A DNA stretch of 64,000 nt from Bryobacterales bacterium. Lineage in GTDB: Bacteria; Acidobacteriota; Terriglobia; Bryobacterales; UBA6623. The stretch spans positions 1,839,412 through 1,903,411 of the forward strand of contig CBDDCL010000015.1 of the NCBI GenBank assembly GCA_965226245.1, in the 5' to 3' direction. The position numbers and the translations under genes were made by a program. The notes under the pieces were generated by a model that saw nothing but the letters and a program-made list of their open reading frames with translations, was not told where the DNA came from and did no database searches. Below are positions 2,881-33,973 of the stretch, one piece after another. Positions within the stretch are counted from its first letter, which is position 1. Every line of letters begins with the position of its first letter.

Positions 2881-2922
2881 GGGTTCGGTGAAAAGTGAGG
2901 ACTGTCAGAGTTGCTCGGTGAG

Positions 2923-3020
2923 AGCCTTGAGCCGCGAAGCGGCGCCGGATCGTAGCCCATGGGTGGAGCGAAGCGGAACCCTGGGTCCAAAACCCCTCGA
3001 GGCGAAAGCCCCGCAAGGGG
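2923..3020. repeat. R-family repeat copy R1 (about 100 bp, chain of five short hairpins; BIME/REP-like)
   Basis: agccttgagccgcgaagcggcgccggatcgtagcccatgggtggagcgaagcggaaccctgggtcc.aaacccctcgagg..aagccccgcaagggg is nearly identical to 11621-11720 and 42004-42099. Confidence 0.8.
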
Positions 3021-3377
3021 CGCAGGAAAACAAGCGCATGATTCTGACAACCGATCCGCCATGTGCCCAAAGAAATCCCGCAAGCGTGCGCGGCGGGCGG
3101 CGTCTGACCCGCCTCCCAACCGGCGAACGGAAAGGCTGGCCACTCGAAAGTGTCAGGGCAGAGCTGTCCCACGACCGCGTCCACGCTCGCGACTGTAAGG
3201 ACTGCGAGGGTGATCTCGACAGCGCGCAGCGAGAGCGGCTAGCGTACATCGCGACCCGCTGCCCAGTGCGCAAGACACTGGCGGCAGGGCCTCATATTAC
3301 AGATGAGGTTATTTAAATAAACGACTTCATTTACCGGTCGTAGCTATGGCAATCGGGTGACCGCTTGCTTACGCGCG

Positions 3378-3411: not shown

Positions 3412-4545
3412 TATGAGCCCTTCTCCGAGCCGCACTAAATCCTCGTCGTCGTTGAAAAAGTGAGGGGAGACTCGCAGGTTGCCTTTCCGCGCCGCCACGG
3501 CGATGCGCCGATCGCGCAGCCGAACCGCCAGCGCCGAGACGTCAACGCCAGGGAACTGCGCCGTCACAATCGGTGAATCGTAGTGAGGATGCTCATCGCT
3601 TGCCAGCCGTCCTCCGCGGGAGCGAAGGACCTCCCGCGTTGTCTCCGCGAGTTGCTGGACACGCCTCTCAATCGCCGCCGGGCCGATCGAATGAATTAGA
3701 TCCAGGACCGCTCCCATGGCGAAGATGCCGCTGAAGTTCTGTATCCCGCCTTCGTACTTGATCGCGCTCGGCGGCAGCTCCGGGACGCCGTGATGCAACT
3801 GGTCGACATCACGCCAGTTCTTGTGACTGCGCCAGCTATAGAGGCTCGGCTTTAGCCACTCCCTTACCCGCGGAGCGACATAAGCGAACCCGATTCCGGT
3901 TGGCGAAAGCATCCACTTGTAGGCGTGCACGACCAGGAAATCGATCGCCGCTGCCTGAACGTCAATCTGCAGCGCCCCGACGCTTTGCGTTCCATCCACG
4001 TAAAAAAGGACGTCTCTCTTTCGCAGCTCGAGGCCGATTGCTTCGATTGGCGGACGAAGCCCAGTGGAGTAGTTCACGGTACTCATCAAGACCAGCCGCG
4101 TTCGTGGCGCCAGCGTCTCGAAAAAACGATCCAGCGAAAAGCGGCCACCCGACAGTTCAAGCTCCGTCAGTGAAACGCCGCCGCTCCCGAGCACTTTGGG
4201 GTAGTAAAGATTGTTGGGAAATTCGTGAGTGAGGGTGACAATTTCATCGCCCGATTTCCAGTCGATTCCGCCGATGAGCCACCCGAGCGCCGCTCCGGCG
4301 TTTGGAATGAATGCAATGTCATCGGCCCCGGCCCCTACAAGTTTCGCGGCTCCCGCCCGCACGACATCCGCTTGGGTATACCAGTCGAGAAAGCCGAGCG
4401 AAGCTGTCTCATCACGGTTCCGGAGGTGCGCCGCCGCCGCTTCCGCCGCGCACAACGGGACCGGCCCAAACGTCGCCGTATTGAGGTAGACCCAATCCTT
4501 CAGGACCGGAAACTGCTCCCGCAGCCGTTGCCATTCGGTAGACAT
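3406..4545 (-). CDS. Aminotransferase class V-fold PLP-dependent enzyme (cysteine desulfurase/epimerase-like)
   Basis: 379-aa ORF with PLP-lysine context VVHAYKWMLSPTGIGFAYV and N-terminal YLNTATFGP typical of class V aminotransferases. Confidence 0.85.
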   Translation of the reverse strand: MSTEWQRLREQFPVLKDWVYLNTATFGPVPLCAAEAAAAHLRNRDETASLGFLDWYTQADVVRAGAAKLVGAGADDIAFIPNAGAALGWLIGGIDWKSGDEIVTLTHEFPNNLYYPKVLGSGGVSLTELELSGGRFSLDRFFETLAPRTRLVLMSTVNYSTGLRPPIEAIGLELRKRDVLFYVDGTQSVGALQIDVQAAAIDFLVVHAYKWMLSPTGIGFAYVAPRVREWLKPSLYSWRSHKNWRDVDQLHHGVPELPPSAIKYEGGIQNFSGIFAMGAVLDLIHSIGPAAIERRVQQLAETTREVLRSRGGRLASDEHPHYDSPIVTAQFPGVDVSALAVRLRDRRIAVAARKGNLRVSPHFFNDDEDLVRLGEGLIR

Positions 4546-4570
4546 TGTCTTAGGCGCTTACCGCCTCCAC

Positions 4571-4590
4571 ATCGACAAAAAATTGTCGAT
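4571..4590. promoter_or_regulatory. Perfect palindrome ATCGACAA-AAAA-TTGTCGAT 26 bp upstream of the aminotransferase start; candidate operator
   Basis: Read directly. Position relative to the start codon at 4545. Confidence 0.3.
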
Positions 4591-5056
4591 GTTGCTGCAA
4601 GTCATTTGTTTTCAACTGCCCCGAAGGGGCCACTTTTTCGGAGCGCAGTCTCCGAAAAAGCCTGGATTCTAGCCCGCCGATCTTGAGGGTTTTGTTCGCG
4701 GAAACGGTCGCATGACGAAGCGGACGAGGCGCTGTCCGGAAGAAGGGAAGGACTAATCAACACCCACCGGGGGCGCAAGCCCTGCGGCTAATTAACGCCA
4801 AGGGCCAATATTAGCACCAGCACAGCGCGAACGTCCCACGAACCAAATCTCAAATACCTTTGGGTAGCCTTAGCTTATCGATGCCGCAACCAGACACGGC
4901 GCCGGGAGCTAGCCCAGGGTTAGCCCGAGGGTTAGCCCCAATTCTCTTCACTTACTGACTTTCGCAAATTACGGTGATACGTTCCGCGCTCGATGGGTAG
5001 GGGCACAGCGTGCTGTGCCCATCTGCAAGCGTCACTATATTTTGCGAAACTTGGTA

Positions 5057-5190
5057 GAGCCGTTGAGCCACGTTCACGTGGCTTGGTCTCCTTTAGGCCG
5101 GTCCTTTTAGGGCCGGTTGAACAGCCCTCGCGAAGTTGCTCCTCAGCCCGTTTCAACGGGCTTTCATTCCGCCCCCTGATCACGACCGTC
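5057..5190. repeat. Left arm of a long (~134 bp) inverted repeat pair
   Basis: gagccgttgagccacgttcacgtggcttggtctcctttaggccggtcc...cagcccgtttcaacgggctttcattccgcc...gatcacgaccgtc. Its reverse complement recurs at 5888-6018 with only a few mismatches or indels. Confidence 0.85.
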
Positions 5191-5667
5191 CCCCGGCAAC
5201 TGCCTAGGGCGCGTCGCCCCGAGGTGGCGCGCGCCTCCTGGCGGGCAGCGTCGGCCTCCGGGCCGGCGTCGCCCCGGCACAGTCCCGTCAGCCGGGGCGC
5301 CTAGCGTGGAGGCGTCCCCCGTGAAAGTGATGGAACCGGCCATCGCTTCCCCAAAAACGGGTCACGTTATTGCAAGACTTTTATTCCCTTTCAAGTCATA
5401 CGTTTAAAGAAATCCACTCCTAATTCCCCGCCGACCACCTGCTGATCTGAATATGTGAGACCGCTCCGCGACTTTCTAGGACCGTTGAGCCCCGCGCCTC
5501 CCGCGCGTGGTCCGGGGAAGTCGTTTCCCGTGGCCTCCAATCCGTATTCGCGATGCCAGAACGTCCAGAGATCCTGGCTGGAACAACAAAAACACACGAT
5601 TCAGGACCCAAAAGGGTCAAATCACCAGGGAGTCTGCCATGGGCCGCCGCGACCCTTTGGAGTCAAG

Positions 5668-5824
5668 CCACTGAAAACAAAAACACTATCCGTCGACACC
5701 AACTACGAGAAGCAAAAAACGCCGACAAGTCCAGTATATGTGCCATTCTCTGCCATTCTCTGCCATTTCATGGAGAAACTTTATAAAATCTTATGCCCCA
5801 ACCGACAACCTCTTTCGTTTCAAC
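5668..5824. repeat. AT-rich conserved module, copy A (CCACTGAAAACAAAAACACTAT ... TGCCATTCTC x3 ... GAAACTTTATAAAA ... CAACCTCTTTCGTTTC)
   Basis: Homologous to 32657-32804 and 60738-60892. On the minus strand it has TTGTCG (5808-5803), a 17-nt spacer and TATAAA (5785-5780). Decamers at 5741-5770. Confidence 0.8.
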
Positions 5825-5887
5825 AACTCTATTTAGACTCTCGCGGTTGCGGGCAGTGCCGGCGCGCCCTTTCGCAGTTGCCGCGAG

Positions 5888-6018
5888 ACGGTCGTGATCA
5901 GGGCGGAATGAAAGCCCGTTGAAACGGGCTGAGGAACAACTTCGGGGGGCTGTTCAACCGGCCCTAAAAGGACCGGCCTAAAAGGAGACCAAGCCACGTG
6001 AACGTGGCTCAACGGCTC
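5888..6018. repeat. Right arm of the long inverted repeat pair
   Basis: gacggtcgtgatcagggcggaatgaaagcccgttgaaacgggctg...gagaccaagccacgtgaacgtggctcaacggctc is the reverse complement of 5057-5190. Confidence 0.85.
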
Positions 6019-6330
6019 CTAGCGGGACTCGTCCTTCCGAAGAGCATCGAGGCCACCCGTTTTCAGGGTGTCATCGTCGCCTACGGATTTGTGGCCGGCC
6101 TCGAAGTCACCTTCAATATCTATGAGTTCTTCGCCGCCCAGAAGCAATTGCGTGGTTCAATGGCAGCGGACCCGAAGGACCTGGAGTGGGGACTGCGGCA
6201 AGTTCGCGCGGGGCGAATCAAGCCGGCTGTCGGCCGTACGCTGCCGCTACGGCAGGCGGCCGAAGCGCATCGGCTGATAGCGTCAAACCAAATTGCCGGC
6301 AACATTGTGTTGCTGCCGTGGGAGAACTGA
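6019..6330 (+). pseudogene. C-terminal fragment of a zinc-type alcohol dehydrogenase/quinone oxidoreductase (MDR family); 5' part missing
   Basis: Only about 100 aa remain: ...GVIVAYGFVAGLEVTFNIYEFF...RAGRIKPAVGRTLPLRQAAEAHRLIASNQIAGNIVLLP, the typical MDR C-terminus. The upstream sequence is the inverted-repeat element, not the Rossmann or catalytic domain. Confidence 0.55.
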
Positions 6331-6430
6331 TGAGAGCCCAGAATCGCTGGGCGGGATCACCGGAGGGCTGTCTGTCTGGTTCAAGAGCAGGCGGGCAGGC
6401 TCTTCGAAATAGAAGTCCAGGAGGTAAACC

Positions 6431-6535
6431 ATGAAAAGCTTTATCAAGTTCAACCTGGGGCTGATGAGATCGCCCCTTCAAGTGCGGCTCTGGCTCGTGC
6501 TGTTGCGTCACCGAATCTCGTTACACCTTTTCTAA
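6431..6535 (+). CDS. Small ORF (34 aa, MKSFIKFNLGLMRSPLQVRLWLVLLRHRISLHLF) with a strong SD; possibly an N-terminal gene fragment
   Basis: aggagg sits 6 nt upstream of the ATG at 6431. Below the ORF-track size cutoff. No family recognised. Confidence 0.3.
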   Translation: MKSFIKFNLGLMRSPLQVRLWLVLLRHRISLHLF

Positions 6536-11353: not shown

Positions 11354-11620
11354 GTAGATCTCCTCCCTCCTTTTCGGCTCCCATCATGGAAAGTTGAGAG
11401 TATTGTTGGCTACAAACCCCTCTTCAAAGCAATTGCCCTGCCAAACCTCGGGGGCTTACTTCATATCGTTGTATCGCAAGCGTCTAGCTCTCTCTTCGGG
11501 CGAAGCTCTTCCTCTCGGGTCGCCTGCGATACAACACTAAGATATTATATCATTAGCTATCCGTGGACAAGCGCTATGTAGTTCGTTTCGTGGCACTCAG
11601 CCCCAATGCTGTTCACCTAA

Positions 11621-11720
11621 AGCCTTTTGAGCCGCGAAGCGGCGCCGGATCGTAGCCCATGGGTGGAGCGAAGCGGAACCCTGGGTCCGAAACCCCTCGA
11701 GGGAGAAGCCCCGCAAGGGG
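11621..11720. repeat. R-family repeat copy R2
   Basis: Near-identical to R1 and R3. ISa copy 1 is inserted 9 bp after its last hairpin (CCCCGCAAGGGG). Confidence 0.8.
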
Positions 11721-12658
11721 TGCATACCACCTGAATTATGCACTGCGGGTACACCTGAGGAGGGCTGTGCCGCGAGGGACCATTGGGCGACCCCCGAAAA
11801 CATGGGGTAATAAGGTAGGCTGGCAAAGATTTCAGCTTCGCCAGCCAACCCCAAGGAGGTCACCCAAATGGTTACCAAGCGAAAACAGCATAGCTCCAAA
11901 AACCCCGCCAAACAAGGCCGCGGCGCGACGGCTCCGCAGCCCAATAAAATCGGGGCTTCCACGCCCTATCACTTCCGCGGCAAGAATCTGACTCCCTACG
12001 GCGGCCTGCTGCCGGTCGCCACCCTGCTCGAAAAACTCGGCTTCCAAGAGCTGCTGGAACAAACCCTCAGCGTCAAACGAATCACCCGTGTGATGAGCCT
12101 CTACCAGTTTGTGCTGGCCCTCGTGCTGGCCCTCGTGCTGGGCCTCTATGTCGGCTTTGCACGGCTCAACCAACTCCGCTTCATCGCGCGCGACCCCATC
12201 CTGACCGGCATCTTGCAAGTGACGCGGCTGCCGCCGCAATCCACGCTGTGGCGCTTTCTGGCCTCGCTGCATCTCAACGTGGCGCGGCAGATCCTGTCGA
12301 TGCAGCGCCAACTGCGCGAACGAGCCTGGGCGGCGGCCAACGTGCGGTTGACCACGGTGACGCTGGACACCGACACCACCGTGCACACCCTCTACGGCCA
12401 GCAGATGGGCGGGCGCAAGAGCTACAACCCCAAGAACAAGGGCAAGCGCAGCTACCAGCCGATACTGACCTTCCTGGCCGAGACGCGCGAATACCTGATG
12501 GGCGGGTTGCACAATGGCGACCGGCCCACGGGCAAAGAGATCGCGGCGCACCTCGAAAGTGCTTTCCAGGCTTTGCCGGCCAGTGTGAAGCGGATCTTGG
12601 CGCGGGCCGATTCCGGCTTTTATTGCTGGGAAGCGGTGGCAGCCTACGAACAAGCGCA

Positions 12659-13685
12659 ATGGGGTATTTAGTTGACTCCAGTAGCCACAATATGTTGTGG
12701 TTGGGGGCATGAAGGAGGACTACCCCCGAAACCTCGTCGAGTTGGAAGCTCGATTCTCGACCGAGGAGGCGTGCCGGGAGTACCTGCTGAAGCTGCGCTG
12801 GCCGGAGGGGTTCGTGTGCCCGCGCTGTGGGATCCAGTCCTCATGGGCCAGCAAACGCAATCTGCTGCTCTGCGCCGACTGCGGTTACCAGGCCTCGGTG
12901 ACGGCGGGCACGATTTTCCAGGACACCCGCAAGCCCTTGACGTTGTGGTTCCGGGCGGCTTGGTGGGTGACAACGCAAAAAGGCGGGGCCAGCGCGCTGG
13001 AGTTGCAGCGGGTCTTGGGTTTGGGTAGCTATGTAACCGCCTGGACCTGGCTGCACAAGTTCCGCCGCGCCATGGTGCGCCCCGGTCGCAATCGGCTGGT
13101 CGGCCGGGTGGAGGTGGACGAAACGTATGTGGGCGGAGTCGAAGAGGGCGTCCGAGGTCGCGAAATGGTTGGCAAAGCGTTAGTTGCGGTTGCTGCCGAG
13201 GAGGATGGGCGCGGTATGGGTCGCATCCGGCTCCGTCGGATCGCGGATGCCTCAGCGGCGAGCTTGGAAGCCTTTGTCGAAGAAGCTATCCAACCTGGCA
13301 GCCTCGTGCACACCGACGGCTGGGAAGGCTATGCGGGATTGGAGAACAAAGGATACCGCCATGAAGTCACCGTGCTGCGCGGGAAGCGGCAATCGGCGAG
13401 TAAGCTGCTGCCGAGAGTCCATCGTGTCGCCTCTCTGCTAAAGCGCTGGCTGTTGGGGACCCACCAGGGGGCTGTCAGTCACGAGTATTTGGACTACTAC
13501 CTGGACGAGTTCACGTTCCGCTTCAACCGGCGGACCTCACGGTCGCGCGGCAAACTTTTCTATCGCCTCCTCCAGCAGGCGGTCGCCGCCGACCCTGCTC
13601 CCTATAAGACAATGGTCGAGGCCACCAGGGCCGGCACCCCCACCCCCAAGATGTAGTGGCTACTGGAGTCAACTAAATACCCCAT
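12659..13685 (+). mobile_element. ISb copy 1 (IS1595/ISXO2-like, 1027 bp) nested in ISa
   Basis: Inverted ends atggggtatttagttgactccagtagccac / gtggctactggagtcaactaaataccccat. The 8-bp duplication CAAGCGCA is at 12651-12658 and 13686-13693. The uninterrupted target gaacaagcgcattgtcag is seen in the other ISa copies. Confidence 0.92.
12709..13656 (+). CDS. IS1595-family (ISXO2-like) DDE transposase with N-terminal zinc ribbon
   Basis: MKEDYPRNL..., CPRCG...CADCG zinc ribbon, VEVDETYVGG and LVHTDGWEGY acidic motifs. ATG at 12709 (the track starts at GTG 12697). Confidence 0.9.
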   Translation: MKEDYPRNLVELEARFSTEEACREYLLKLRWPEGFVCPRCGIQSSWASKRNLLLCADCGYQASVTAGTIFQDTRKPLTLWFRAAWWVTTQKGGASALELQRVLGLGSYVTAWTWLHKFRRAMVRPGRNRLVGRVEVDETYVGGVEEGVRGREMVGKALVAVAAEEDGRGMGRIRLRRIADASAASLEAFVEEAIQPGSLVHTDGWEGYAGLENKGYRHEVTVLRGKRQSASKLLPRVHRVASLLKRWLLGTHQGAVSHEYLDYYLDEFTFRFNRRTSRSRGKLFYRLLQQAVAADPAPYKTMVEATRAGTPTPKM

Positions 13686-15040
13686 CAAGCGCATTGTCAG
13701 TTCGTCATCGTGGCGCGCAAGACTAGGCGACTGGTCGAGCAGTTGCAGCAAGCGGAATGGAAGCCCTCGCCCCACAGCGACGCTGCGGCGGAGTGCGAAT
13801 TCCTCTACCAGCCGCAAGGCTGGGGCAGGGCCTGCCGCTTTGTCGCGCTGCGTTATGAAAAGGAGCCGGAAACCGACGAGGTCGAGCAATATCAGTTGTT
13901 TGCAACCAGCGCTTACACCTACCGCGTGTTCGTCACCAACCTCACCGAGCCGATCGCGGCGGTGGCGTGGTTTTACAACCAGCGGGCTGGGGCGGAGAAC
14001 CTCATCAAAGAAGCCAACAACGACGCCGGGCTGGCGGCCCATCCTTCGCGCCGCTTTGACATGAACCGCAATCACTTTCAGTTGGTCATGCTGGCCTACA
14101 ACCTCAACTGCTGGCTGCTGCTGTTCCAGCGCGAAGCCGACGCCACCCCGGAGAAGCTGCGCCACACCACCCTGGCGACGGCGCGGCTGCGCTTTCTGTT
14201 CGTGGCGGCCAAGATCTGGCGGCATGCCGGCAGAACGGGCATCAGCTACAGCGATCAGTACCAGGAGCAGGGCCTGTTCGAGCGGCTGATGCGGCGGCTG
14301 CGGGCGATGGCGCCGCCGGGATCGAGCTGCGCGCCGGTGGTGGAGGGTGCGCTGCGTTGAGGGGCGCTGCGCATAGAATTTTATGCACGGGCCGCAAGCT
14401 ACTGGGAACATGCCGTTTGCGAGCCCGCTTTTGCCCGCCCGGAATTGGGAGGCGGCTCAAACCGGGAAGGAAACAGCAGAAAAGACGACTTGCTAAATCA
14501 CTGAGTTGACACGACTGCCGCTACCGCCACAACTCCATCGGCGATGGCTACGCCGAACCTGTGCATAATTCAGGTACCATAGTCCTGCTGGCGGTCGCGG
14601 AACTCTTCGTGCCAGTTTTGGACGACGCAACGGAAAATACTTTCACCTCGCCTGCGCTTCAAGATTCCAAGCGCTAGATGAGAACGCCGCCACGGAGCGG
14701 AGCTACTTTCGAGTTCTGCCCCTGATAAACTCGATTGATGACGAAACCGTACTCGGAACGCGGGATCCGGCAACTGCGGTGGTCACACTTACAGTTCTAG
14801 TACTAACGGATCATACCAAATAAGTACAAATTGTCTATGGACAAAACGCCTTAGTCGCGGCCATTATACCCTAGAACGCTCTTTTTGAGACTATGCCGCC
14901 CGTAGGGGCGGGCGTCAGCGAAGAGTCCGAGGGATTGGACCCGCGGCGCAGGAGCACGAAAAAAACGGGCAAGGAAGCAAAACTTCGGCGAAGCCGTGTG
15001 GCTGCGGGCGCGACGGTCTGGCTGGCTGGGAGATCGTGGT

Positions 15041-15068: not shown

Positions 15069-15126
15069 ATGCGCAACCGACATCGGGAATTAAATGGATA
15101 CACCATTCCTTGTTTACTCTCTTACA

Positions 15127-16924
15127 CCTGAATTATGCACAGGTTCGGCGTAGCCATCGCCGATGGAGTTGTGGCGGTAGCGGCAGTCGTGTCAACTCAG
15201 TGATTTAGCAAGTCGTCTTTTCTGCTGTTTCCTTCCCGGTTTGAGCCGCCTCCCAATTCCGGGCGGGCAAAAGCGGGCTCGCAAACGGCATGTTCCCAGT
15301 AGCTTGCGGCCCGTGCATAAAATTCTATGCGCAGCGCCCCTCAACGCAGCGCACCCTCCACCACCGGCGCGCAGCTCGATCCCGGCGGCGCCATCGCCCG
15401 CAGCCGCCGCATCAGCCGCTCGAACAGGCCCTGCTCCTGGTACTGATCGCTGTAGCTGATGCCCGTTCTGCCGGCATGCCGCCAGATCTTGGCCGCCACG
15501 AACAGAAAGCGCAGCCGCGCCGTCGCCAGGGTGGTGTGGCGCAGCTTCTCCGGGGTGGCGTCGGCTTCGCGCTGGAACAGCAGCAGCCAGCAGTTGAGGT
15601 TGTAGGCCAGCATGACCAACTGAAAGTGATTGCGGTTCATGTCAAAGCGGCGCGAAGGATGGGCCGCCAGCCCGGCGTCGTTGTTGGCTTCTTTGATGAG
15701 GTTCTCCGCCCCAGCCCGCTGGTTGTAAAACCACGCCACCGCCGCGATCGGCTCGGTGAGGTTGGTGACGAACACGCGGTAGGTGTAAGCGCTGGTTGCA
15801 AACAACTGATATTGCTCGACTTCGTCGGTTTCCGGCTCCTTTTCATAACGCAGCGCGACAAAGCGGCAGGCCCTGCCCCAGCCTTGCGGCTGGTAGAGGA
15901 ATTCGCACTCCGCCGCAGCGTCGCTGTGGGGCGAGGGCTTCCATTCCGCTTGCTGCAACTGCTCGACCAGTCGCCTGGTCTTGCGCGCCACGATGACGAA
16001 CTGACAATGCGCTTGTTCGTAGGCTGCCACCGCTTCCCAGCAATAAAAGCCGGAATCGGCCCGCGCCAAGATCCGCTTCACACTGGCCGGCAAAGCCTGG
16101 AAAGCACTTTCGAGGTGCGCCGCGATCTCTTTGCCCGTGGGCCGGTCGCCATTGTGCAACCCGCCCATCAGGTATTCGCGCGTCTCGGCCAGGAAGGTCA
16201 GTATCGGCTGGTAGCTGCGCTTGCCCTTGTTCTTGGGGTTGTAGCTCTTGCGCCCGCCCATCTGCTGGCCGTAGAGGGTGTGCACGGTGGTGTCGGTGTC
16301 CAGCGTCACCGTGGTCAACCGCACGTTGGCCGCCGCCCAGGCTCGTTCGCGCAGTTGGCGCTGCATCGACAGGATCTGCCGCGCCACGTTGAGATGCAGC
16401 GAGGCCAGAAAGCGCCACAGCGTGGATTGCGGCGGCAGCCGCGTCACTTGCAAGATGCCGGTCAGGATGGGGTCGCGCGCGATGAAGCGGAGTTGGTTGA
16501 GCCGCGCAAAGCCGACATAGAAGCCCAGCACGAGGGCCAGCACAAACTGGTAGAGGCTCATCACACGGGTGATTCGTTTGACGCTGAGGGTTTGTTCCAG
16601 CAGCTCTTGGAAGCCGAGTTTTTCGAGCAGGGTGGCGACCGGCAGCAGGCCGCCGTAGGGAGTCAGATTCTTGCCGCGGAAGTGATAGGGCGTGGAAGCC
16701 CCGATTTTATTGGGCTGCGGAGCCGTCGCGCCGCGGCCTTGTTTGGCGGGGTTTTTGGAGCTATGCTGTTTTCGCTTGGTAACCATTTGGGTGACCTCCT
16801 TGGGGTTGGCTGGCGAAGCTGAAATCTTTGCCAGCCTACCTTATTACCCCATGTTTTCGGGGGTCGCCCAATGGTCCCTCGCGGCACAGCCCTCCTCAGG
16901 TGTACCCGCAGTGCATAATTCAGG
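15127..16924 (-). mobile_element. ISa copy 2 (1798 bp), intact
   Basis: Terminal CCTGAATTATGCAC inverted repeats. The 5-bp duplication TTACA is at 15122-15126 and 16925-16929. Inserted after codon 11 of the GT2 gene. Confidence 0.92.
15341..16786 (-). CDS. ISa transposase (IS1380-family-like DDE, 481 aa)
   Basis: VTLDTDTTVHTLYGQQ, ARADSGFYCWE and FYNQRAGAENLIKEANND (Y-x2-R-x3-E-x3-K) motifs. SD aaggagg before the ATG. Confidence 0.9.
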   Translation of the reverse strand: MVTKRKQHSSKNPAKQGRGATAPQPNKIGASTPYHFRGKNLTPYGGLLPVATLLEKLGFQELLEQTLSVKRITRVMSLYQFVLALVLGFYVGFARLNQLRFIARDPILTGILQVTRLPPQSTLWRFLASLHLNVARQILSMQRQLRERAWAAANVRLTTVTLDTDTTVHTLYGQQMGGRKSYNPKNKGKRSYQPILTFLAETREYLMGGLHNGDRPTGKEIAAHLESAFQALPASVKRILARADSGFYCWEAVAAYEQAHCQFVIVARKTRRLVEQLQQAEWKPSPHSDAAAECEFLYQPQGWGRACRFVALRYEKEPETDEVEQYQLFATSAYTYRVFVTNLTEPIAAVAWFYNQRAGAENLIKEANNDAGLAAHPSRRFDMNRNHFQLVMLAYNLNCWLLLFQREADATPEKLRHTTLATARLRFLFVAAKIWRHAGRTGISYSDQYQEQGLFERLMRRLRAMAPPGSSCAPVVEGALR

Positions 16925-17435
16925 TTACACTAGTCAAGTTCTTGCTAGTCGTAGTTAGTGTCGGTTTTTTTGCGCTCGGCGTCGACGATCTCTTGGTTGA
17001 CATCTGCTACGCAGTCCGGCGTTTGTATCGCCGGCTCTTCGTGGAGCGGCGATACAAATCACTCAGCGAAAGTGATCTCCTCGAAAAGAGCGAACAGCCT
17101 GTTGCCATTATGATTCCTACCTGGCAGGAGTCTGGCGTCATCCGGCAGATGCTAGAGAATACGCTGCGGACGGTAACTTACTCAGACTTTGAGATCTTCG
17201 TTGGCACGTACCAAAACGACGAAGAGACAGCAGCCGCGGTAGAGAAGGCCCGCGAGCAATCGCACCGCGTTCACCGAATTGTCTGTCCCAAGGACGGGCC
17301 AACCAGCAAAGCCGACTGCCTCAACTGGATCTATCAGGGGATCCGGTCCTTTGAGGCTCGCAACAGCGTCAAGTTCGCATTCTATGTCATGCATGACTCG
17401 GAGGATATCGTTCACCCGCTCTCGCTAAAGTTGTT

Positions 17436-18472
17436 GATGGGTATTCACTTGACTCAGGTATTTTGAAATGGCCCCTACATGTTGTGGTTGTCCGTAGCGC
17501 GTGTTGCGGTGCCTCCGACCAGCGACTTGTAGGGCGCCGGTTGGACGGCGACGGCCTGCTGAACCAGGCGGTAGAAGAGCTTGCCTCGGCTTCTGGACTT
17601 GCGGCGGTTGAAGCGGAAGGTGAATTCGTCGAGGTAGTAGTCGAGATGCTCGTGGCTGACGGCTCCTTGATGCGTACCCAGTATCCAACGCTTCAGTAAC
17701 GACACCACGCGATGCACGCGGGGGAGCAGTTGAGAGGCTCGTGCCGGTTGCCCGTCCAGGTAGCTCACCTCGTGGCGATAGCCGTCGCTTTCGAGTGGCT
17801 CGTATCCCAGCCAGCCGTCCGTGTGGACCACGCTGCCGGGTTCGACCGACTCGCCGACGAAGGCCATCAAGCTGTCCCCAGAGGCGTTCGGAATCGTGCG
17901 CATCCGAACTCGTCCGATGCCGGCGCCATCTTCCTCGGCCGCTACTACAATCAGCGCTTTCGCGTCGGTTTGGCGGCCCCGCACGCCCTCCTCCAGGGCT
18001 CCTAAGTAAGTCTCGTCAACCTCAACGCGCCCGCTGAGGCGATCACGTCCGGGCCGCACCATAGCGCGCCGAAGCTTGTGCAACCAAGTCCAGGCCGTCT
18101 TGTAGCTGCCCAGGCCCAACACCCGCTGCAATCCCAATGCACTCGCCCCGTTCTTCTGGCTGGTGAGCCACCACATTGCTCGAAACCAACTCTGGAGCGG
18201 CTTGCGGGTGTCTTGAAAGATTGTGCCTGCTGTCGCCGAAGCTTGATGCCCGCAGCTTGCACACTGCAGCAGCACCGTGCGCACCGCCCAGGTTTTGTCA
18301 TGCCCGCATCGCGGACAACGAAAACCCTCCGGCCAGCGGAGTTGACACAGATACTCCCGACAGGCCTGCTCGCTAGCGAAACGCGCCTCGAACTCGGCCA
18401 AATTCCGGGGATAATCTTCCATCGCCCAAGATCCTACATCTTGGGGTCACCTGAGTCAAGTAAATACCCATC
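17436..18472 (-). mobile_element. ISb2 (diverged IS1595/ISXO2-like relative of ISb, 1037 bp)
   Basis: Ends gatgggtattcacttgactcaggt / acctgagtcaagtaaatacccatc. The 8-bp duplication AAGTTGTT is at 17428-17435 and 18473-18480. Confidence 0.88.
17475..18422 (-). CDS. IS1595-family (ISXO2-like) transposase, 315 aa
   Basis: MEDYPRNLAEFEARF..., CPRCG...CASCG, VEVDETYLGA, VVHTDGWLGY. Clearly homologous to, but distinct from, the ISb protein. Confidence 0.9.
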   Translation of the reverse strand: MEDYPRNLAEFEARFASEQACREYLCQLRWPEGFRCPRCGHDKTWAVRTVLLQCASCGHQASATAGTIFQDTRKPLQSWFRAMWWLTSQKNGASALGLQRVLGLGSYKTAWTWLHKLRRAMVRPGRDRLSGRVEVDETYLGALEEGVRGRQTDAKALIVVAAEEDGAGIGRVRMRTIPNASGDSLMAFVGESVEPGSVVHTDGWLGYEPLESDGYRHEVSYLDGQPARASQLLPRVHRVVSLLKRWILGTHQGAVSHEHLDYYLDEFTFRFNRRKSRSRGKLFYRLVQQAVAVQPAPYKSLVGGTATRATDNHNM

Positions 18473-18596
18473 AAGTTGTTTAACTACCTCATGCCCAGAA
18501 TGGGGATGGTACAACTCCCGGTACTTCCTCTGCAGACTCGGCTGCGGGACTTCACGAGTGGTCACTATATCGACGAGTTTTGTGAGTTTCATTCCA

Positions 18597-20396
18597 CCTG
18601 AATTATGCACAGGTTCGGCGTAGCCATCGCCGATGGAGTTGTGGCGGTAGCGGCAGTCGTGTCAACTCAGTGATTTAGCAAGTCGTCTTTTCCGCGGTTT
18701 CCCTCCCGGTTTGAGCCGCCTCCCAATCCGGGCGGGCAAAAGCGGGCTCGCAAACGGCATGTTCCCAGTAGCTTGCAGCAAGTGCATAAAATTTTATGCA
18801 TGGAGCACCTCTCAACGCAGCGCACCCTCCACCACCGGCGCGCAGCTCGATCCCGGCGGCGCCATCGCCCGCAGCCGCCGCATCAGCCGCTCGAACAGGC
18901 CCTGCTCCTGGTACTGATCGCTGTAGCTGATGCCCGTTCTGCCGGCGTGCCGCCAGATCTTGGCCGCCACGAACAGAAAGCGCAGCCGCGCCGTCGCCAG
19001 GGTGGTGTGCCGCAGCTTCTCCGGGGTGGCGTCGGCTTCACGCTGGAACAGCAGCAGCCAGCAGTTGAGGTTGTAGGCCAGCATGACCAACTGAAAGTGA
19101 TTGCGGTTGGTGTCAAAGCGGCGCGAAGGATGGGCCGCCAGCCCGGCATCGTTGTTGGCCTCCTTGATCAGGTTTTCCGCCCCGGCCCGCTGATTGTAAA
19201 ACCACACCACCGCCGCGATCGGCTCGGCCAGGTTGGTCACAAACACGCGGTAGGTGTAAGCGCTGGTTGCAAACAACTGATATTGCTCGACCTCCTCGGT
19301 TTCCGGCTCCTTTTCATAACGCAGCGCGACAAAGCGGCAAGCCCTGCCCCAGCCTTGCGGCTGGCAGAGGAATTCGCACTCCGCCGCAGCGTCGCTGTGG
19401 GGCGAGGGCTTCCATTCCGCTTGCTGCAACTGCTCGACCAGTCGCCTGGTCTTGCGCGCCACGATGACGAACTGACAATGCGCTTGTTCGTAGGCTGCCA
19501 CCGCTTCCCAGCAATAAAAGCCGGAATCGGCCCGCGCCAAGATCCGCTTCACACTGGCCGGCAAAGCCTGGAAAGCACTTTCGAGGTGCGCCGCGATCTC
19601 TTTGCCCGTGGGCCGGTCGCCATTGTGCAACCCGCCCATCAGGTATTCGCGCGTCTCGGCCAGGAAGGTCAGTATCGGCTGGTAGCTGCGCTTGCCCTTG
19701 TTCTTGGGGTTGTAGCTCTTGCGCCCGCCCATCTGCTGGCCGTAGAGGGTGTGCACGGTGGTGTCGGTGTCCAGCGTCACCGTGGTCAACCGCACGTTGG
19801 CCGCCGCCCAGGCTCGTTCGCGCAGTTGGCGCTGCATCGACAGGATCTGCCGCGCCACGTTGAGATGCAGCGAGGCCAGAAAGCGCCACAGCGTGGATTG
19901 CGGCGGCAGCCGCGTCACTTGCAAGATGCCGGTCAGGATGGGGTCGCGCGCGATGAAGCGGAGTTGGTTGAGCCGCGCAAAGCCGACATAGAGGCCCAGC
20001 ACGAGGGCCAGCACAAACTGGTAGAGGCTCATCACACGGGTGATTCGTTTGACGCTGAGGGTTTGTTCCAGCAGCTCTTGGAAGCCGAGTTTTTCGAGCA
20101 GGGTGGCGACCGGCAGCAGGCCGCCGTAGGGAGTCAGATTCTTGCCGCGGAAGTGATAGGGCGTGGAAGCCCCGATTTTATTGGGCTGCGGAGCCGTCGC
20201 GCCGCGGCCTTGTTTGGCGGGGTTTTTGGAGCTATGCTGTTTTCGCTTGGTAACCATTTGGGTGACCTCCTTGGGGTTGGCTGGCGAAGCTGAAATCTTT
20301 GCCAGCCTACCTTATTACCCCATGTTTTCGGGGGTCGCCCAATGGTCCCTCGCAGCTCAGCCCTCCTCAGGTGCACCCCGCAGTGCATAATTCAGG
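18597..20396 (-). mobile_element. ISa copy 3 (1800-bp sequence variant), intact
   Basis: Same terminal repeats. The 5-bp duplication TTCCA is at 18592-18596 and 20397-20401. It differs from the 1798-bp variant mainly in the transposase 3' third and both subterminal regions. Confidence 0.92.
18812..20257 (-). CDS. ISa transposase (variant allele, 481 aa)
   Basis: Full-length ORF with a few substitutions relative to the other copies (e.g. FLCQPQ, PETEEVEQ, NLAEPIAAVVW, RFDTNRN). Confidence 0.9.
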   Translation of the reverse strand: MVTKRKQHSSKNPAKQGRGATAPQPNKIGASTPYHFRGKNLTPYGGLLPVATLLEKLGFQELLEQTLSVKRITRVMSLYQFVLALVLGLYVGFARLNQLRFIARDPILTGILQVTRLPPQSTLWRFLASLHLNVARQILSMQRQLRERAWAAANVRLTTVTLDTDTTVHTLYGQQMGGRKSYNPKNKGKRSYQPILTFLAETREYLMGGLHNGDRPTGKEIAAHLESAFQALPASVKRILARADSGFYCWEAVAAYEQAHCQFVIVARKTRRLVEQLQQAEWKPSPHSDAAAECEFLCQPQGWGRACRFVALRYEKEPETEEVEQYQLFATSAYTYRVFVTNLAEPIAAVVWFYNQRAGAENLIKEANNDAGLAAHPSRRFDTNRNHFQLVMLAYNLNCWLLLFQREADATPEKLRHTTLATARLRFLFVAAKIWRHAGRTGISYSDQYQEQGLFERLMRRLRAMAPPGSSCAPVVEGALR

Positions 20397-21210
20397 TTCC
20401 AAGAACCTCGTGGTGCGCGAGTTTCTCAGTCACACCATGCCCTGTGCGGGTGTTGGGTGCGCTTTTAGCCGTGAGGTGTTTGAGACATTCGTCGAGGCGG
20501 ATCCAGACAATTTGTTCAACGTCGAGTCGTTGACAGAGGACTATGAGTTTGGACTGCGCCTCCGGGACTATAGCTGGAAAGCGATCTTTGTGAATAAGGC
20601 CCTGAAACGAACCGTTGTCGAAACAGATCCAAATTCCGGCGAAGAACGGCGGTCGAAGGTCTCCGATTACGTCGCTACAAGGGAGTTGTTCCCTAACAAA
20701 CTTTCCGCGGCGGTCCGTCAAAAATCCCGCTGGGTGATTGGCATTGCCCTGCAAGGCTGGCGGAATTTGGGTTGGAGAGGTACGTGGGCCGCGCGCTATG
20801 CGTTTCTGCAGGACAGGAAGTGTCTATTAGGAAATCACCTGAACATGGCGGGATACGCTCCGCTGGGCTGTCTGCTGTTGCTGTGGATCCCAACCGTAGT
20901 CGATCCCGGGCGGTACAGTTTTCCCGTCCTGGTCACGACTGGCTCCTGGCTATGGTATATCCTCTGGGTCGATCTAGTATTTCTGCTGAATCGGCTTGTT
21001 CACCGCTCGTTTTTCGTCTGGCGGATCTACGGCTGGAAGCAGGGCCTGTGCTCCATTCCAAGGGCCATCTGGGGCAATGTAATTAACTTTCTTGCGGTCG
21101 TTCGGGCTGTATATCTCTACGGGCGCTATCTACTCACCAGAAAACCCATCGGTTGGGACAAGACCGGACATGTTTTCCCGTCCGCACTGACCTTTAGCAA
21201 AACTTACGGG

Positions 21211-21369: not shown

Positions 21370-23612
21370 ATTGAAAGTGCAACCCCATTGCCTCCGCCAA
21401 AGCGGCTCGTTTCGGATCTTTTGCGGAAACTGCCTCGCGATATGGCTTCCTCTTGCTCCGCGATTCCGGTAGACGAAGATCAGGAAGGGCGGGTCGTCAT
21501 CGCCACGAGCGAGATCTTGAGCCGGGAAAAAATCGAGGCTCTTCAAGCCCGCTTTGACAAGCCCATAAGGATTCAGCTGGCAGAGCGCAAAGAAGTGGGA
21601 TTGCTGATCGAGCGGGCCTACGGCTCGTGAAGTGAAACGTCAGCTCGGGAGATGCCGGTCAGCTAAATAACAACTCTTGGTAACGACTCGCCCAAACCGA
21701 ACTTTGGAAGGCATGACTTGTATGCAACGACCCAGCTATAAACCGCCTTCGATCCTTATTCTGACCGTAGCGTTGTTGGGGGCGTGTCAACTATGGGCGC
21801 CCCGGGCTGGAGCAGCCCCGGACCCCAACGTCGCCAAGACCGCCGAGCGTGGCTGGATCTCGAGAGAATACCATCGTATACGTAACCACCTTGTTCTCAG
21901 CGAGACCCATCGGCTCGTGGCGTCGCCATGGTGCGCGGTGAACTCGAAAATGCCCGCCACAAGCTGGAAACTCACCTCCGTGACCAGCCTCGAGATATAC
22001 CGGCAAGGCGCCAATACCTTACCGTGCTTGACCGTTTGGGGCTTCACCCGAAAGTCATACAAGAAGCGACGCTTCTCATCGACCAAGACCCCGAGTTTCG
22101 CGATGCCAGGCTCTACCGCGCGGGGGCCTACCAAGCGGTCGGTAGGATCCGAGAAGCGGTGTCCGACTTTCAAGCAGTGGGCATTGACCAAGCAAACGAG
22201 CAGGCAGACCGGATCTACGCGCTGAATATGGCCGCGGACCTGGCCCTCGGTCAGCAACTTTACAGCGAGGCGCTGGATTCGCTAGCGCATCTGGCAGCAT
22301 TCTCGCAAACTTATGCTGTCTACTTTCGCAGGGGTTTGGCGCTGGAGGGGGCGGGCCGGGTGTCCTCGGCGACGGAGGCTTACAAGCTCGCTCTCGAGCG
22401 GGCGAGCACGGATGAGGAGCGGCTCGGCGCCCTCCGTGGGCTAGGTGGGACGGCCCGAAAAAGCGGGGATTCGGGCGCGGCGTACAAGGTGTTTTCCAAA
22501 GCCCACCAACTAAGGTCCGACGATGTGTTCGTGCTGCGCAGCTTGGCTGAGATCACTCGTTCGCAGAAGCAATTTCGGGAAACTGCAGGGTGGGCCCGGC
22601 AGGTTCTTGCCATTACCCAGGACCCAAGTGATAGAGAGTTCCTTGCAAGTGTCCTTTACCAGAGCAAGGACTACTCAGGAGCAGCCAGAGAGTATTCAAT
22701 CCTGAAGGCGGATGTTGATCCGCCGCGGAGAGTGCGAGCTTACCGCGCTCTGGCGAATATTGCTGGCCGGCAGGGTAATTTCTCTTCCGAAAAACGCCAT
22801 CTGATGTCAGCGCTGAGTCTAGACTCCCGGAATGCTGAGGTGCTCCGGGCGCTGGCCCACAACAGCTCTAAACAAAGAGACTACGAGGCTAGCGTCAATT
22901 GGATAAAAAAGGCGAGGGCCGCCCAGCCCAAGTTGGAAGACCACATCCTTCTAGCCAACGGGTTGATCGAGCTTGGCCGGTTTCAGGACGCCGTTAAACA
23001 GTGGACCATCGTGCTTTCCGGGCTAAAGGTTCCCCGGAACAGACATCCAATCTTGGTGTCGTTGGGTCACACCCACACTCTGGCGGGTGATCAGGCCTCC
23101 GCTACAGCAGCTTTTCGTGAAGCTGCTCGCATTCGTCCGGACGTGCTCACCCTAACAGCCCTCGCACACTCTCTGGAAGCAGCACAGTCTTTGAGTGAAG
23201 CGATTGAGATTTGGGAAGCTGTGCTCGAGCAAAGTCCATCCCCGGAAACGCACTACAGATTAGGAGTACTCTTCGCCCAAGCCGGCGAAGATCTCCAGGC
23301 TCTCAACCATTTATCCAAGGCGGCACAGAACGGTCTATCAATAGAGCTGAAGGCTTCGGCATATAAGCAACTGGGTTACCTCTACCAGAAATCCGGCCAG
23401 CTGAGGCAAGCTCTTTCGGCCTTCGAAAAGGCGGTTACTCGGGACGAGAAAGATTCCGTGCTCTACCTGGCGCTGGGCAACTTATCCATGCAGATGCATG
23501 AGTACGGGAAAGCGATCCACTACTTTCAGCTCGGCCTCGCAATCGAGCACACACCAGAGCTTATTCGAGGGCTAACTGTGGCTGAGGTTCAGGCGTCAGG
23601 CGAACTGTTGCA

Positions 23613-25410
23613 CCTGAATTATGCACTGCGGGTACACCTGAGGAGGGCTGTGCCGCGAGGGACCATTGGGCGACCCCCGAAAACATGGGGTAATAAGGTA
23701 GGCTGGCAAAGATTTCAGCTTCGCCAGCCAACCCCAAGGAGGTCACCCAAATGGTTACCAAGCGAAAACAGCATAGCTCCAAAAACCCCGCCAAACAAGG
23801 CCGCGGCGCGACGGCTCCGCAGCCCAATAAAATCGGGGCTTCCACGCCCTATCACTTCCGCGGCAAGAATCTGACTCCCTACGGCGGCCTGCTGCCGGTC
23901 GCCACCCTGCTCGAAAAACTCGGCTTCCAAGAGCTGCTGGAACAAACCCTCAGCGTCAAACGAATCACCCGTGTGATGAGCCTCTACCAGTTTGTGCTGG
24001 CCCTCGTGCTGGGCCTCTATGTCGGCTTTGCGCGGCTCAACCAACTCCGCTTCATCGCGCGCGACCCCATCCTGACCGGCATCTTGCAAGTGACGCGGCT
24101 GCCGCCGCAATCCACGCTGTGGCGCTTTCTGGCCTCGCTGCATCTCAACGTGGCGCGGCAGATCCTGTCGATGCAGCGCCAACTGCGCGAACGAGCCTGG
24201 GCGGCGGCCAACGTGCGGTTGACCACGGTGACGCTGGACACCGACACCACCGTGCACACCCTCTACGGCCAGCAGATGGGCGGGCGCAAGAGCTACAACC
24301 CCAAGAACAAGGGCAAGCGCAGCTACCAGCCGATACTGACCTTCCTGGCCGAGACGCGCGAATACCTGATGGGCGGGTTGCACAATGGCGACCGGCCCAC
24401 GGGCAAAGAGATCGCGGCGCACCTCGAAAGTGCTTTCCAGGCTTTGCCGGCCAGTGTGAAGCGGATCTTGGCGCGGGCCGATTCCGGCTTTTATTGCTGG
24501 GAAGCGGTGGCAGCCTACGAACAAGCGCATTGTCAGTTCGTCATCGTGGCGCGCAAGACCAGGCGACTGGTCGAGCAGTTGCAGCAAGCGGAATGGAAGC
24601 CCTCGCCCCACAGCGACGCTGCGGCGGAGTGCGAATTCCTCTACCAGCCGCAAGGCTGGGGCAGGGCCTGCCGCTTTGTCGCGCTGCGTTATGAAAAGGA
24701 GCCGGAAACCGACGAAGTCGAGCAATATCAGTTGTTTGCAACCAGCGCTTACACCTACCGCGTGTTCGTCACCAACCTCACCGAGCCGATCGCGGCGGTG
24801 GCGTGGTTTTACAACCAGCGGGCTGGGGCGGAGAACCTCATCAAAGAAGCCAACAACGACGCCGGGCTGGCGGCCCATCCTTCGCGCCGCTTTGACATGA
24901 ACCGCAATCACTTTCAGTTGGTCATGCTGGCCTACAACCTCAACTGCTGGCTGCTGCTGTTCCAGCGCGAAGCCGACGCCACCCCGGAGAAGCTGCGCCA
25001 CACCACCCTGGCGACGGCGCGGCTGCGCTTTCTGTTCGTGGCGGCCAAGATCTGGCGGCATGCCGGCAGAACGGGCATCAGCTACAGCGATCAGTACCAG
25101 GAGCAGGGCCTGTTCGAGCGGCTGATGCGGCGGCTGCGGGCGATGGCGCCGCCGGGATCGAGCTGCGCGCCGGTGGTGGAGGGTGCGCTGCGTTGAGGGG
25201 CGCTGCGCATAGAATTTTATGCACGGGCCGCAAGCTACTGGGAACATGCCGTTTGCGAGCCCGCTTTTGCCCGCCCGGAATTGGGAGGCGGCTCAAACCG
25301 GGAAGGAAACAGCAGAAAAGACGACTTGCTAAATCACTGAGTTGACACGACTGCCGCTACCGCCACAACTCCATCGGCGATGGCTACGCCGAACCTGTGC
25401 ATAATTCAGG
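23613..25410 (+). mobile_element. ISa copy 4 (1798 bp), intact
   Basis: Terminal repeats as above. The 5-bp duplication TTGCA is at 23608-23612 and 25411-25415. Confidence 0.92.
23751..25196 (+). CDS. ISa transposase (481 aa)
   Basis: Differs from the 15341-16786 copy by a single residue (GLYVG here versus GFYVG there); the 34112-35557 protein as listed is identical. Confidence 0.9.
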   Translation: MVTKRKQHSSKNPAKQGRGATAPQPNKIGASTPYHFRGKNLTPYGGLLPVATLLEKLGFQELLEQTLSVKRITRVMSLYQFVLALVLGLYVGFARLNQLRFIARDPILTGILQVTRLPPQSTLWRFLASLHLNVARQILSMQRQLRERAWAAANVRLTTVTLDTDTTVHTLYGQQMGGRKSYNPKNKGKRSYQPILTFLAETREYLMGGLHNGDRPTGKEIAAHLESAFQALPASVKRILARADSGFYCWEAVAAYEQAHCQFVIVARKTRRLVEQLQQAEWKPSPHSDAAAECEFLYQPQGWGRACRFVALRYEKEPETDEVEQYQLFATSAYTYRVFVTNLTEPIAAVAWFYNQRAGAENLIKEANNDAGLAAHPSRRFDMNRNHFQLVMLAYNLNCWLLLFQREADATPEKLRHTTLATARLRFLFVAAKIWRHAGRTGISYSDQYQEQGLFERLMRRLRAMAPPGSSCAPVVEGALR

Positions 25411-30743: not shown

Positions 30744-31040
30744 AATCAGACTCCCGTCAGGGGGAGGCTGCGGTCGGCGTGATGGGAGCAAGCAGCGTCC
30801 TCTCAATAGAAGAAGGCAAGGGCGGGTAGCCGAACTCGTCTTTTTTTGATTGCGGCGCGAACGTCTGCGCTTGCCGCAAAATGATTCGCCGGTTCGTCCG
30901 GCTTGCGGCGCCGGACACCGCTCTCCACGCCGGCGTTTCCCAATTCGAGTGAAGGAGAAGTGTGTCCGGACAGCCCAAAGCGCGAATTTTCTGAAATCCG
31001 CTCAATCCTGCTCACTCTGCATCCAATTGGCGGACCACCG
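30708..31040. repeat. D-family repeat copy D1 (inverted relative to D2)
   Basis: tttccggccccggcttgacacaccccttacaatga...gcgaattttctgaaatccgctcaatcctgctcactctgcatccaattgg is the reverse complement of 53786-54053, with a variable centre. Confidence 0.75.
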
Positions 31041-32804: not shown

Positions 32805-32894
32805 CCGTTCGCTGGCCACCCAGTACGGAGTGTAGCGCGGCCCGGCTTCAAGACTGTGCTACCCTTTCCCCAACTCTCGAAAGGAGACGCCAAG

Positions 32895-33971: not shown

Positions 33972-33973
33972 CA

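Follow-up and report, generated by a model that had tools for sequence, protein, structure and literature searches.

We have analyzed a 962-bp unit bounded by inverted repeats (positions 5057-6018) in a 64-kb stretch of DNA from a Bryobacterales bacterium, termed here the window, which lies in a 7.19-Mb metagenome-assembled contig (ENA ERZ28763718, ctg125699). The unit abuts the 3′ remnant of an oxidoreductase gene. We consider it probable that the unit is a locus-specific mosaic of non-autonomous, non-coding selfish repeats in dispensable DNA, and not a foldback transposon. Read in this way, the long inverted repeat beside a broken gene would have come from a common repeat that inserted twice, independently, into dead DNA; it would represent no new class of mobile element, and the gene would not have been killed by the unit.

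The inverted repeat itself is longer than the approximately 134 bp with few mismatches of the original prediction. Alignment by BLAST shows that 5057-5216 and 5860-6018 are reverse complements with 92.6% identity over 162 columns (E = 1.8e-60), so that each arm is ~160 nt in length. Three small indels break the alignment, as a result of which a repeat finder lists it as three segments. The left arm (5057-5216, forward strand, with its core at 5063-5173) is a copy of a dispersed three-hairpin repeat, and the right arm (5860-6018, reverse strand, core 6012-5902) is a second, shorter copy in inverted orientation. The arms had been described as strings of hairpins; the hairpins named then are present, together with a third in each arm. 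Hairpin 1 (AGCCACG-TTCA-CGTGGCT) lies at 5066-5083 in the left arm and 5992-6009 in the right, hairpin 2 (CCGGTCC-TTTTA-GGGCCGG) at 5098-5116 and 5958-5976, and hairpin 3 (AGCCCGT-TTCA-ACGGGCT) at 5145-5162 and 5913-5930. All three were recovered, in the orientation of the arm itself, by centroid folds (z = -2.3 and -4.7 relative to shuffled sequences).

An identical arrangement is found in L003, a relative from an independent assembly of another sample (ERZ25068966). Its unit is collinear with that of the window, but has diverged from it by about 5-7% and has acquired an IS630-type insertion sequence (IS) of its own. There are no signs of an inverton; the interiors in the window and in L003 are collinear, and no recombinase gene adjoins the unit in the gene calls of the source assembly. 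Comparison with Rfam 15 gave nothing beyond chance at E ≤ 1 over 4400-6500, no match across the window, and no match on the arm at 15 further loci.

Are the arms confined to this locus? Within the window they are, as the two copies already described. First scans of other genomes with CTTTTAGGGCCGGTTGAACAGC matched nothing, and were uninformative because this block includes GAACAGC, which is specific to the lineage of the window and L003. The first family members were obtained by searching a protein collection with ORFs (open reading frames) of the arms, in the form of 12 spurious R/P-rich "proteins" that result from reading across arm-like DNA on other contigs. A DNA pattern constructed from two family-wide hairpins (X and Y) was then used to collect further copies. 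This gave 15 loci in species-representative GTDB genomes and 43 loci in JGI metagenomes. Those in GTDB are in several metagenome-assembled genomes (MAGs) labelled Bryobacterales, including six copies in one long-read MAG, and in MAGs labelled Phycisphaerae/Planctomycetota, the taxon labels being those of the deposited MAGs. A profile search of all the fetched loci gave 77 core hits at 68 loci, 65 full-length. The search for other copies of the arm that had been proposed has thus returned many, and the arms are not unique.

Nearly all copies of the core are solo. Solo arms stand at unrelated intergenic sites in L005, L007 (two copies), L008, L009, L010, L011 and L012. A full-length inverted pair enclosing several hundred base pairs is present only in the window and its orthologue L003 among the 68 loci, which argues against the earlier suggestion that the 962-bp unit is itself the mobile unit; the remaining multi-copy loci contain direct pairs or tight partial foldbacks. 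Alignment of the copies reveals a sharply bounded conserved core of ~112 nt containing the three hairpins, which is followed in most copies by another ~45 nt and then a GC-rich hairpin. The conclusion that emerges is that the arms are copies of a dispersed and evidently once-mobile repeat family. The family appears to be undescribed, and its motif strings do not occur in the searchable literature. Its members occupy intergenic DNA in Bryobacterales genomes rich in IS elements, and are also present in Phycisphaerae. Such repeats influence rearrangement, draw in further IS insertions and create spurious ORFs in metagenome annotation, such as the 12 recovered here; a profile of the family would help to mask these.

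In the Phycisphaerae MAGs the hairpins are found in foldback arrays of ~290 nt with the order X…Y…Y′…X′. At L014, L016, L017, L018, L020 and L023, in Phycisphaerae/Planctomycetota MAGs, X and Y have the same sequence as in the arm and lie in arrays of many GC-rich stem-loops, with two copies per MAG that are 77-81% identical. The Bryobacterales MAG with six arm copies also contains a match to the Rfam Acido-Lenti-1 RNA (L027, 336-390; 40.2 bits, with a gathering score of 37), consistent with the acidobacterial label of that MAG. Named homologues of the aminotransferase that flanks the unit in the window are from Bryobacterales/Acidobacteria MAGs; its other close orthologues include P0091 (94%), P0092 (93%), and P0094 and P0095 (91% each).

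The two arms of the unit do not seem, from their alignments, to be sister copies. For the right arm, identity with the solo copy of L005 (94.4%) exceeds that with the left arm (92.6%); between orthologous arms of the window and L003 it is 95.6% and 97.5%. A ~30-nt leader and a GC-hairpin tail, like those of solo copies, are found with the left arm but not with the right. The leader of the left arm (4908-4954, forward strand) comprises a (C/T)TAGCCC tandem motif and then CCCCAATTCTCTTCACTTA, and lies at the start of the block that is missing from another relative, L004. It is also present in the solo copies of L005 and L038.

The interior of the unit is another dispersed non-coding module, comprising a GC-rich hairpin and an element we call module A, that often accompanies the arm. 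The GC-rich hairpin module (5217-5290, forward strand) forms the tail of the left arm and follows the arm in most solo copies; the 47 nt at 5224-5270 are repeated with 100% identity at 32485-32531. It is followed by a non-coding spacer (5291-5589, no strand assigned), within which the TA of CTAG at 5476-5479 is the site used by the IS630-type element in L003. Module A (5590-5835, forward strand) is also non-coding, and is AT-richer (46% GC), with the form CACTGAAAACAAAAACACTAT ... AAACTTTATAAAA ... CAACCTCTTTCGTTTC; a promoter scan gave one weak promoter-like site within it, at 5760-5789. Further copies of module A are present in the window at 32590-32838 and 60672-60927, and at L007, L010, L013, L024 and L025. 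The content of dispersed repeat pieces noted earlier is therefore confirmed, and so is the view that the interior has no credible ORF. The interior ORFs of 155 and 103 amino acids have no Pfam match, no gene is called in the interior in the source assembly, and the 155-residue ORF is cut in L003 by the IS630-type insertion at window position ~5480.

The association of the arm with module A recurs. In L003, L010, L013, L024 and L025 the arm precedes module A, both in one orientation and separated by 370-630 nt. Three of these composites are from a distant Bryobacterales MAG; there they have defined ends, but neither a terminal inverted repeat (TIR) nor a conserved ORF. In L007 an inverted arm follows module A, with unrelated sequence at the junction. 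The unit in the window therefore reads as one recurrent composite together with one extra, inverted solo arm. We also considered whether a second complete copy of the GC hairpin plus module A (M unit) might be present at 5480-5835, and rejected this because its 5′ part aligns unconvincingly.

The right arm runs directly into the remnant of a zinc-type medium-chain dehydrogenase/reductase (MDR), or quinone oxidoreductase, gene (6019-6330, forward strand), which is a pseudogene relic of 103 codons plus stop. This agrees with the ~100 C-terminal codons described before. The translated remnant matches positions 40-134 of the 134 of the Pfam ADH_zinc_N_2 profile, corresponding to the C-terminal third of the protein, and in tblastn the homology to longer MDR homologues begins exactly at 6019, the first base beyond the right arm. 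A protein search with the remnant returned only C-terminal fragments as homologues.

It had been suggested that the element, or a rearrangement that it mediated, destroyed this gene. We have addressed this by comparison with the orthologous loci of three relatives, recovered by means of the flanking genes. In L003, whose flanks are ~93% identical, the whole unit is present and the MDR remnant is frameshifted; here a 1.2-kb IS630-type element (DDE_3, with a TA duplication) is inserted at the TA of CTAG corresponding to 5476-5479. L004 (~91%) lacks both 4554-4868 and ~4908-6018, and its homology with the window stops at ~4907. In this relative the sequence upstream of the aminotransferase gene joins the MDR remnant directly (…GTHVVIDNLGGGVLPK…), and the remnant, which is interrupted by an IS256-type element, starts 8 codons further 5′ than that of the window. 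Thus both arms and the interior are present in the window and L003, and neither arm nor interior in L004. In L071, where the aminotransferase is 84% identical, synteny is maintained on the DJ-1/TPR side, while the other side is occupied by an SSF transporter gene; the locus contains neither an MDR remnant nor an arm nor module A. The synteny of L071 breaks exactly at the position of the block.

Since L004 has no block and yet has a truncated MDR gene, the element is not shown to have destroyed the gene. As judged from these alignments, the gene was already 5′-truncated before the block arrived, and the arrival of the block, or a later deletion, removed only about 20 nt (8 codons) more. The lack of the MDR gene at this position in L071 places the break at an older breakpoint of synteny, and on the same comparison we take the locus to lie at that breakpoint. 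The missing N-terminal part, for which a search had been recommended, has left no remnant in the window, L003, L004 or L071. The comparison of orthologous loci has therefore borne out the idea of an insertion, in that the block is extra DNA relative to L004, but it provided no relative with an intact MDR gene.

What evidence is there for the mobility of the family? In many copies from metagenomes the core lies inside an element of ~290-520 bp bounded by 15-nt TIRs of sequence CTGGAGTTTCTACAT… and …ATGTAGAAACTCCAG. Such TIR-bounded copies, of 290-517 bp, are found in L031/L033, L036, L039, L046/L067 and L054/L057, and the long form of the arm is ~290 nt (L038). Copies of ~300 bp come from metagenome 3300009173 and related samples. 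The arms in the window and the composites of the soil lineage have no consistent TIR pairs, and the TIR motif is found only singly, beside several of the soil-lineage copies. Single motifs lie on the left in L010 and L013, and on the right at 60987-60999 in the window. The idea that the long composite running from arm to module A is one TIR-bounded element was rejected, as there are scattered single motifs only, in no consistent pairs. The right-end motif at 60987-60999 (GAATGTAGAAACTCT) is located ~100 nt beyond an M unit that lacks an arm (60500-60927), and is the sole good right-end motif near any copy of module A in the window. The TIR-bounded element of 517 bp (L054 2732-3248, the same as in L057) lies between two copies of hairpin 1 (AGCCACGTTTACGTGGC), which could represent either an unusually long target duplication or insertion into a tandem.

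We looked for an element that might have mobilized the family. No parent IS could be identified in the window; neither the termini of its 1.8-kb IS (ACCTGAATTATGCAC) nor those of an IS1595-like element (GATGGGGTATTTAGTTGAC) match. The Y1 transposase (PF01797) is not among the Pfam hits of the genes of L001-L012, nor of 10 small arm-flanking ORFs (L015-L027), and a REPtron or TIRtron was rejected because there is no Y1 transposase near any copy examined. We also considered a bridge RNA of the IS110/IS1111 type, on account of an IS110-type gene lying ~320 nt from the arm of L008. However, in L005 the arm is present but not the IS110 element, which lies 2 kb away in L006. This adjacency is not repeated, and the core consists of three simple hairpins without the loop-bearing domains of a bridge RNA, and therefore the idea was dropped.

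How then might the unit have been assembled? We suggest that the repeat family was spread by a transposase acting in trans. The left arm with its GC-hairpin tail and module A would be a composite of the type that recurs at other loci, and the right arm would be a separate, shorter copy placed in the opposite orientation beside the 3′ end of module A, the same adjacency as in L007. The complete block (about 4908-6018) would have arisen after the split of the L004 lineage and before that of L003. Its landing site would have been an old rearrangement junction between the upstream region of the aminotransferase gene and the already 5′-truncated MDR pseudogene, where about 20 nt (8 codons) would have been lost. 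The inverted repeat would thus be an accident of two opposite insertions. The repeat family, the prevalence of solo copies, the compensatory conservation of the hairpins, the distribution of the block among relatives and the earlier truncation of the gene are demonstrated here, while the transposition mechanism, the number of insertion steps and any activity of the hairpins as terminators or insulators are inferred.

A number of observations weigh against this scheme. The whole arm-bounded block is either present or absent as one piece between the relatives, which a single insertion fits too, and no intermediate state with one arm only was found among the orthologous loci. The soil-lineage copies have no clean TIR pairs, and the leader in the window is only weakly homologous to the canonical TIR. 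No target-site duplication is seen at the block (by comparison with L004), at the arms or at the TIR-bounded copies; examination of other copies for such duplications, which had been proposed, therefore gave none at those with TIRs. By contrast with the block, there is a TA duplication at a 100-bp miniature inverted-repeat transposable element (MITE) and a CTTAG duplication at the insertion R1, both described below. No autonomous partner was found, given that the termini of the window IS elements are mismatched and that the arm-flanking ORFs are unrelated save for the IS630-type one in L024, and the mechanism of transposition is therefore unproven. Because the pattern required hairpins X and Y to be intact, the copies found with it look more conserved than they would otherwise. 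Lastly, the census of paired copies covers the fetched loci, and there might be other pairs elsewhere in the 7.19-Mb source genome.

Could the block have moved as one piece? In this case the inverted arms would be the ends of a composite or foldback-type element that was present in the ancestor of the window and L003. In common with foldback elements, the unit has inverted arms of ~160 bp with internal structure, placed around non-coding DNA. Both arms and the interior are missing together from L004, with the arms at the two ends of the extra DNA; moreover the family includes true TIR-bounded elements, and its Phycisphaerae versions are themselves foldback arrays. Unlike a foldback element, however, the paired arrangement recurs at none of about 60 other loci, while each half recurs independently elsewhere. 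The arms are not sisters, the outer ends are not equivalent (the leader being missing from the right arm), and in place of a target duplication about 20 nt of the target are missing. The resemblance to foldback elements drawn in the original prediction is not sustained by these observations, and movement of the block as one piece seems doubtful. The inverted repeat might instead have arisen in place, by local inverted duplication or as a palindrome generated by recombination. Both arms have a lineage-specific GAACAGCC variant and a CCGTTG prefix, which would favour this. However, the closest match to the right arm is the solo copy of L005 rather than the left arm, and the arms differ in both their inner and outer extents; neither a local inverted duplication nor the recombination-generated palindrome that had been proposed is therefore supported. 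There is in addition none of this sequence at the L004 locus to act as a source, and formation in place is very improbable.

Long-read assembly is known to fail at long inverted repeats, and the structure could in principle be an artefact arising from a chimeric or foldback long-read error. Yet the same structure, about 5-7% diverged and with its own IS630 insertion, is present in the independent assembly L003. The inverted repeat is therefore not the misassembly that had been entertained, and we give this explanation virtually no weight. We are left with two opposite insertions of a common repeat as the probable origin of the unit.

The hairpins of the core are conserved by compensated change. 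When 23 copies are aligned, pairing is seen in 96.7% of the cells of the three helices, and there are three pairs with compensatory double changes, a number reached in 0 of 500 column shuffles. In helix 1, CCACG/CGTGG is replaced by CCCCG/CGGGG or CCGCG/CGCGG. In helix 2, CCGGTCC/GGGCCGG is replaced by CCAGCC/GGCTGG, and this occurs in a copy that lies outside the pattern selection. In 20 of the 23 copies helix 2 has retained a U.G wobble that can pair on just one strand, and therefore the fold is strand-specific. Hairpin 3 is followed by TTTC(A/G)T, and from its sequence looks like an intrinsic terminator.

These properties raise the question of whether the core might be a functional, strand-specific module of RNA or DNA, i.e., a mobile terminator, an insulator or the RNA partner of a recombinase. 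An inward-facing pair of such modules would shield the interior from read-through transcription. The compensatory changes in helices 1 and 2, the conserved one-strand wobble and the T-tract after hairpin 3 all point in this direction. X and Y are identical in MAGs of two phyla although the linkers and hairpin 1 vary, and the core is covered by no Rfam family. Against this, the search pattern itself enforced the cross-phylum identity of X and Y, no conserved promoter is found upstream, and the core resembles selfish DNA in being multi-copy and mosaic, and in being bounded in places by TIRs. Furthermore the orientation of the core with respect to neighbouring genes is mixed, about 4 of the 10 gene-called copies being downstream of a co-oriented gene. 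The placement expected of a terminator was rejected on the same ground, the orientation of the arm relative to upstream genes being mixed. A functional module of this kind is quite unlikely. The more general proposition, that the ~112-nt core is a selected, strand-specific functional module common to Acidobacteriota and Planctomycetota rather than inert selfish DNA, is unlikely as well, if slightly less so. If true, the core would be a portable terminator or insulator, or else a structure that a transposition system recognizes or uses as a guide, and its function could also explain the recurrent, geometry-specific pairing with module A.

We can now compare the selfish repeats that probably make up the unit with elements known from other bacteria. 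Bacterial MITEs are non-autonomous IS derivatives, for example Correia/NEMIS, and there are the enterobacterial RU-1/ERIC and RU-2 intergenic repeats (PMC2759123, PMC5896051). The arm family resembles MITEs in being small, non-coding, multi-copy, intergenic and rich in structure. Its best-preserved copies (~290-520 bp) have 15-nt TIRs, and its members are present or absent between close relatives. The core (~112 nt) and the long form (~290 nt) are both below ~600 bp, while the 962-bp unit exceeds the usual size; the family is multi-copy (77 hits at 68 loci) and polymorphic for insertion, the block being present in the window and L003 and absent from L004. Unlike MITEs, the family has no evident target-site duplication, and no parent IS was found. 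The arms in the window are partial copies without a TIR pair of their own, and the conserved part is the internal core rather than the termini.

Repetitive extragenic palindromic (REP) sequences are imperfect palindromes of 20-40 nt that are tagged with GTAG or CGTC at one end (PMC3733652). They and the bacterial interspersed mosaic elements (BIMEs) resemble the present family in that hairpin modules occur singly, as dimers or in clusters, mixed with other short motifs in variable order and orientation (PMC3733652, PMC2817692). Here arms, GC hairpins, module A, TIR motifs and further modules are likewise combined in differing orders and orientations. Compensated hairpins, IS insertions in or beside the repeats, and plausible roles in termination or mRNA stability are also shared. 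In contrast to REP and BIME sequences, the unit is ~112-290 nt rather than 20-40 nt. Its hairpins, of 18-19 nt, have the flanks GTTG / TTGG, TTTAGG / TTGA and CCTC / TTCA; neither GTAG nor CGTC tags them, and no tag is conserved in the 23 copies. TIRtrons with long multi-palindromic inverted repeats have been described in Acidobacteria (PMC3733652, PMC2817692), but in contrast to these and to REPtrons, the arm copies examined have no Y1 (RAYT/TIRYT) gene between them or next to them. The family is therefore one of hairpin-rich, non-autonomous intergenic repeats that is akin to MITEs and to REP/BIME mosaics, while lacking defining features of each.

The locus is a tolerated dumping ground for small insertions. 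Over ~1.5 kb it has gathered the insertion R1, the 100-bp MITE, the IS630-type element in L003 and the IS256-type element in L004. R1 is a non-coding insertion of 315 bp (4554-4868, no strand assigned) that lies outside the unit, directly upstream of the start of the aminotransferase gene, and is flanked by CTTAG direct repeats at 4549-4553 and 4869-4873. It is present in L003 and absent from L004 and L071, which read ...CTTAGCTTATCGAT... unbroken. The ~70 nt at its 3′ end recur at 42337-42369 in the window, and twice in L005. Between the leader and the left arm there is a 100-bp MITE (4955-5054, no strand assigned), with imperfect TIRs CTGACTTTCGCAAA... and ...TTTGCGAAACTTGG and a TA duplication at 4953-4954 and 5055-5056. 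L003 lacks 4955-5054 and has the empty site cttcactTAgagccg, and we therefore identify this segment as a TA-MITE.

The same junction between the end of the MITE and the arm is spanned by a spurious protein from an 815-nt ENA contig (P0082), where the downstream sequence differs. The occurrence of this junction at a second locus suggests targeted insertion or co-mobilization. IS630-type elements (HTH plus DDE_3) are found beside the arm in L024 (5959-7040) and inside the unit in L003 (8285-9506). The TA used by the IS630-type element of L003 and that used by the MITE at the edge of the left arm in the window both lie upstream of a GTTGAGCC(A/C)CG motif, and the 5′ border of the arm may be a preferred TA target.

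The window is full of IS copies, together with several short dispersed modules. There are about six copies of the 1.8-kb IS with termini ACCTGAATTATGCAC, which encode a DDE_Tnp_1_4 transposase, are 95-99.9% identical and have 3-bp duplications (TAC/TGC). These lie at 11725-14580, 15126-16925, 18596-20397, 23612-25411, 33973-35772 and 43321-45067. Within the copy at 11725-14580 there is an interruption by the IS1595-like element, of 1,029 bp (12658-13686), a sequence identical to 27679-28707. This element has ~30-bp TIRs and a 6-8-bp duplication, and a relative with 69% identity is present at 17511-18469. A dispersed module of ~100-125 nt is found at 2921-3024, 11599-11724 and 41977-42100 with 93-95% identity. 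Elsewhere it adjoins copies of the arm (P0081, P0082 and P0083, and upstream of L007b and L008), and it belongs to the same repertoire of mosaic pieces. Palindromic stretches of ~110-160 nt that are 70-79% self-complementary lie at 2056-2177, 37777-37932 and 42225-42336, and a 164-nt inverted pair with 86% identity is located 23 kb apart, at 30709-31036 and 53778-54054.

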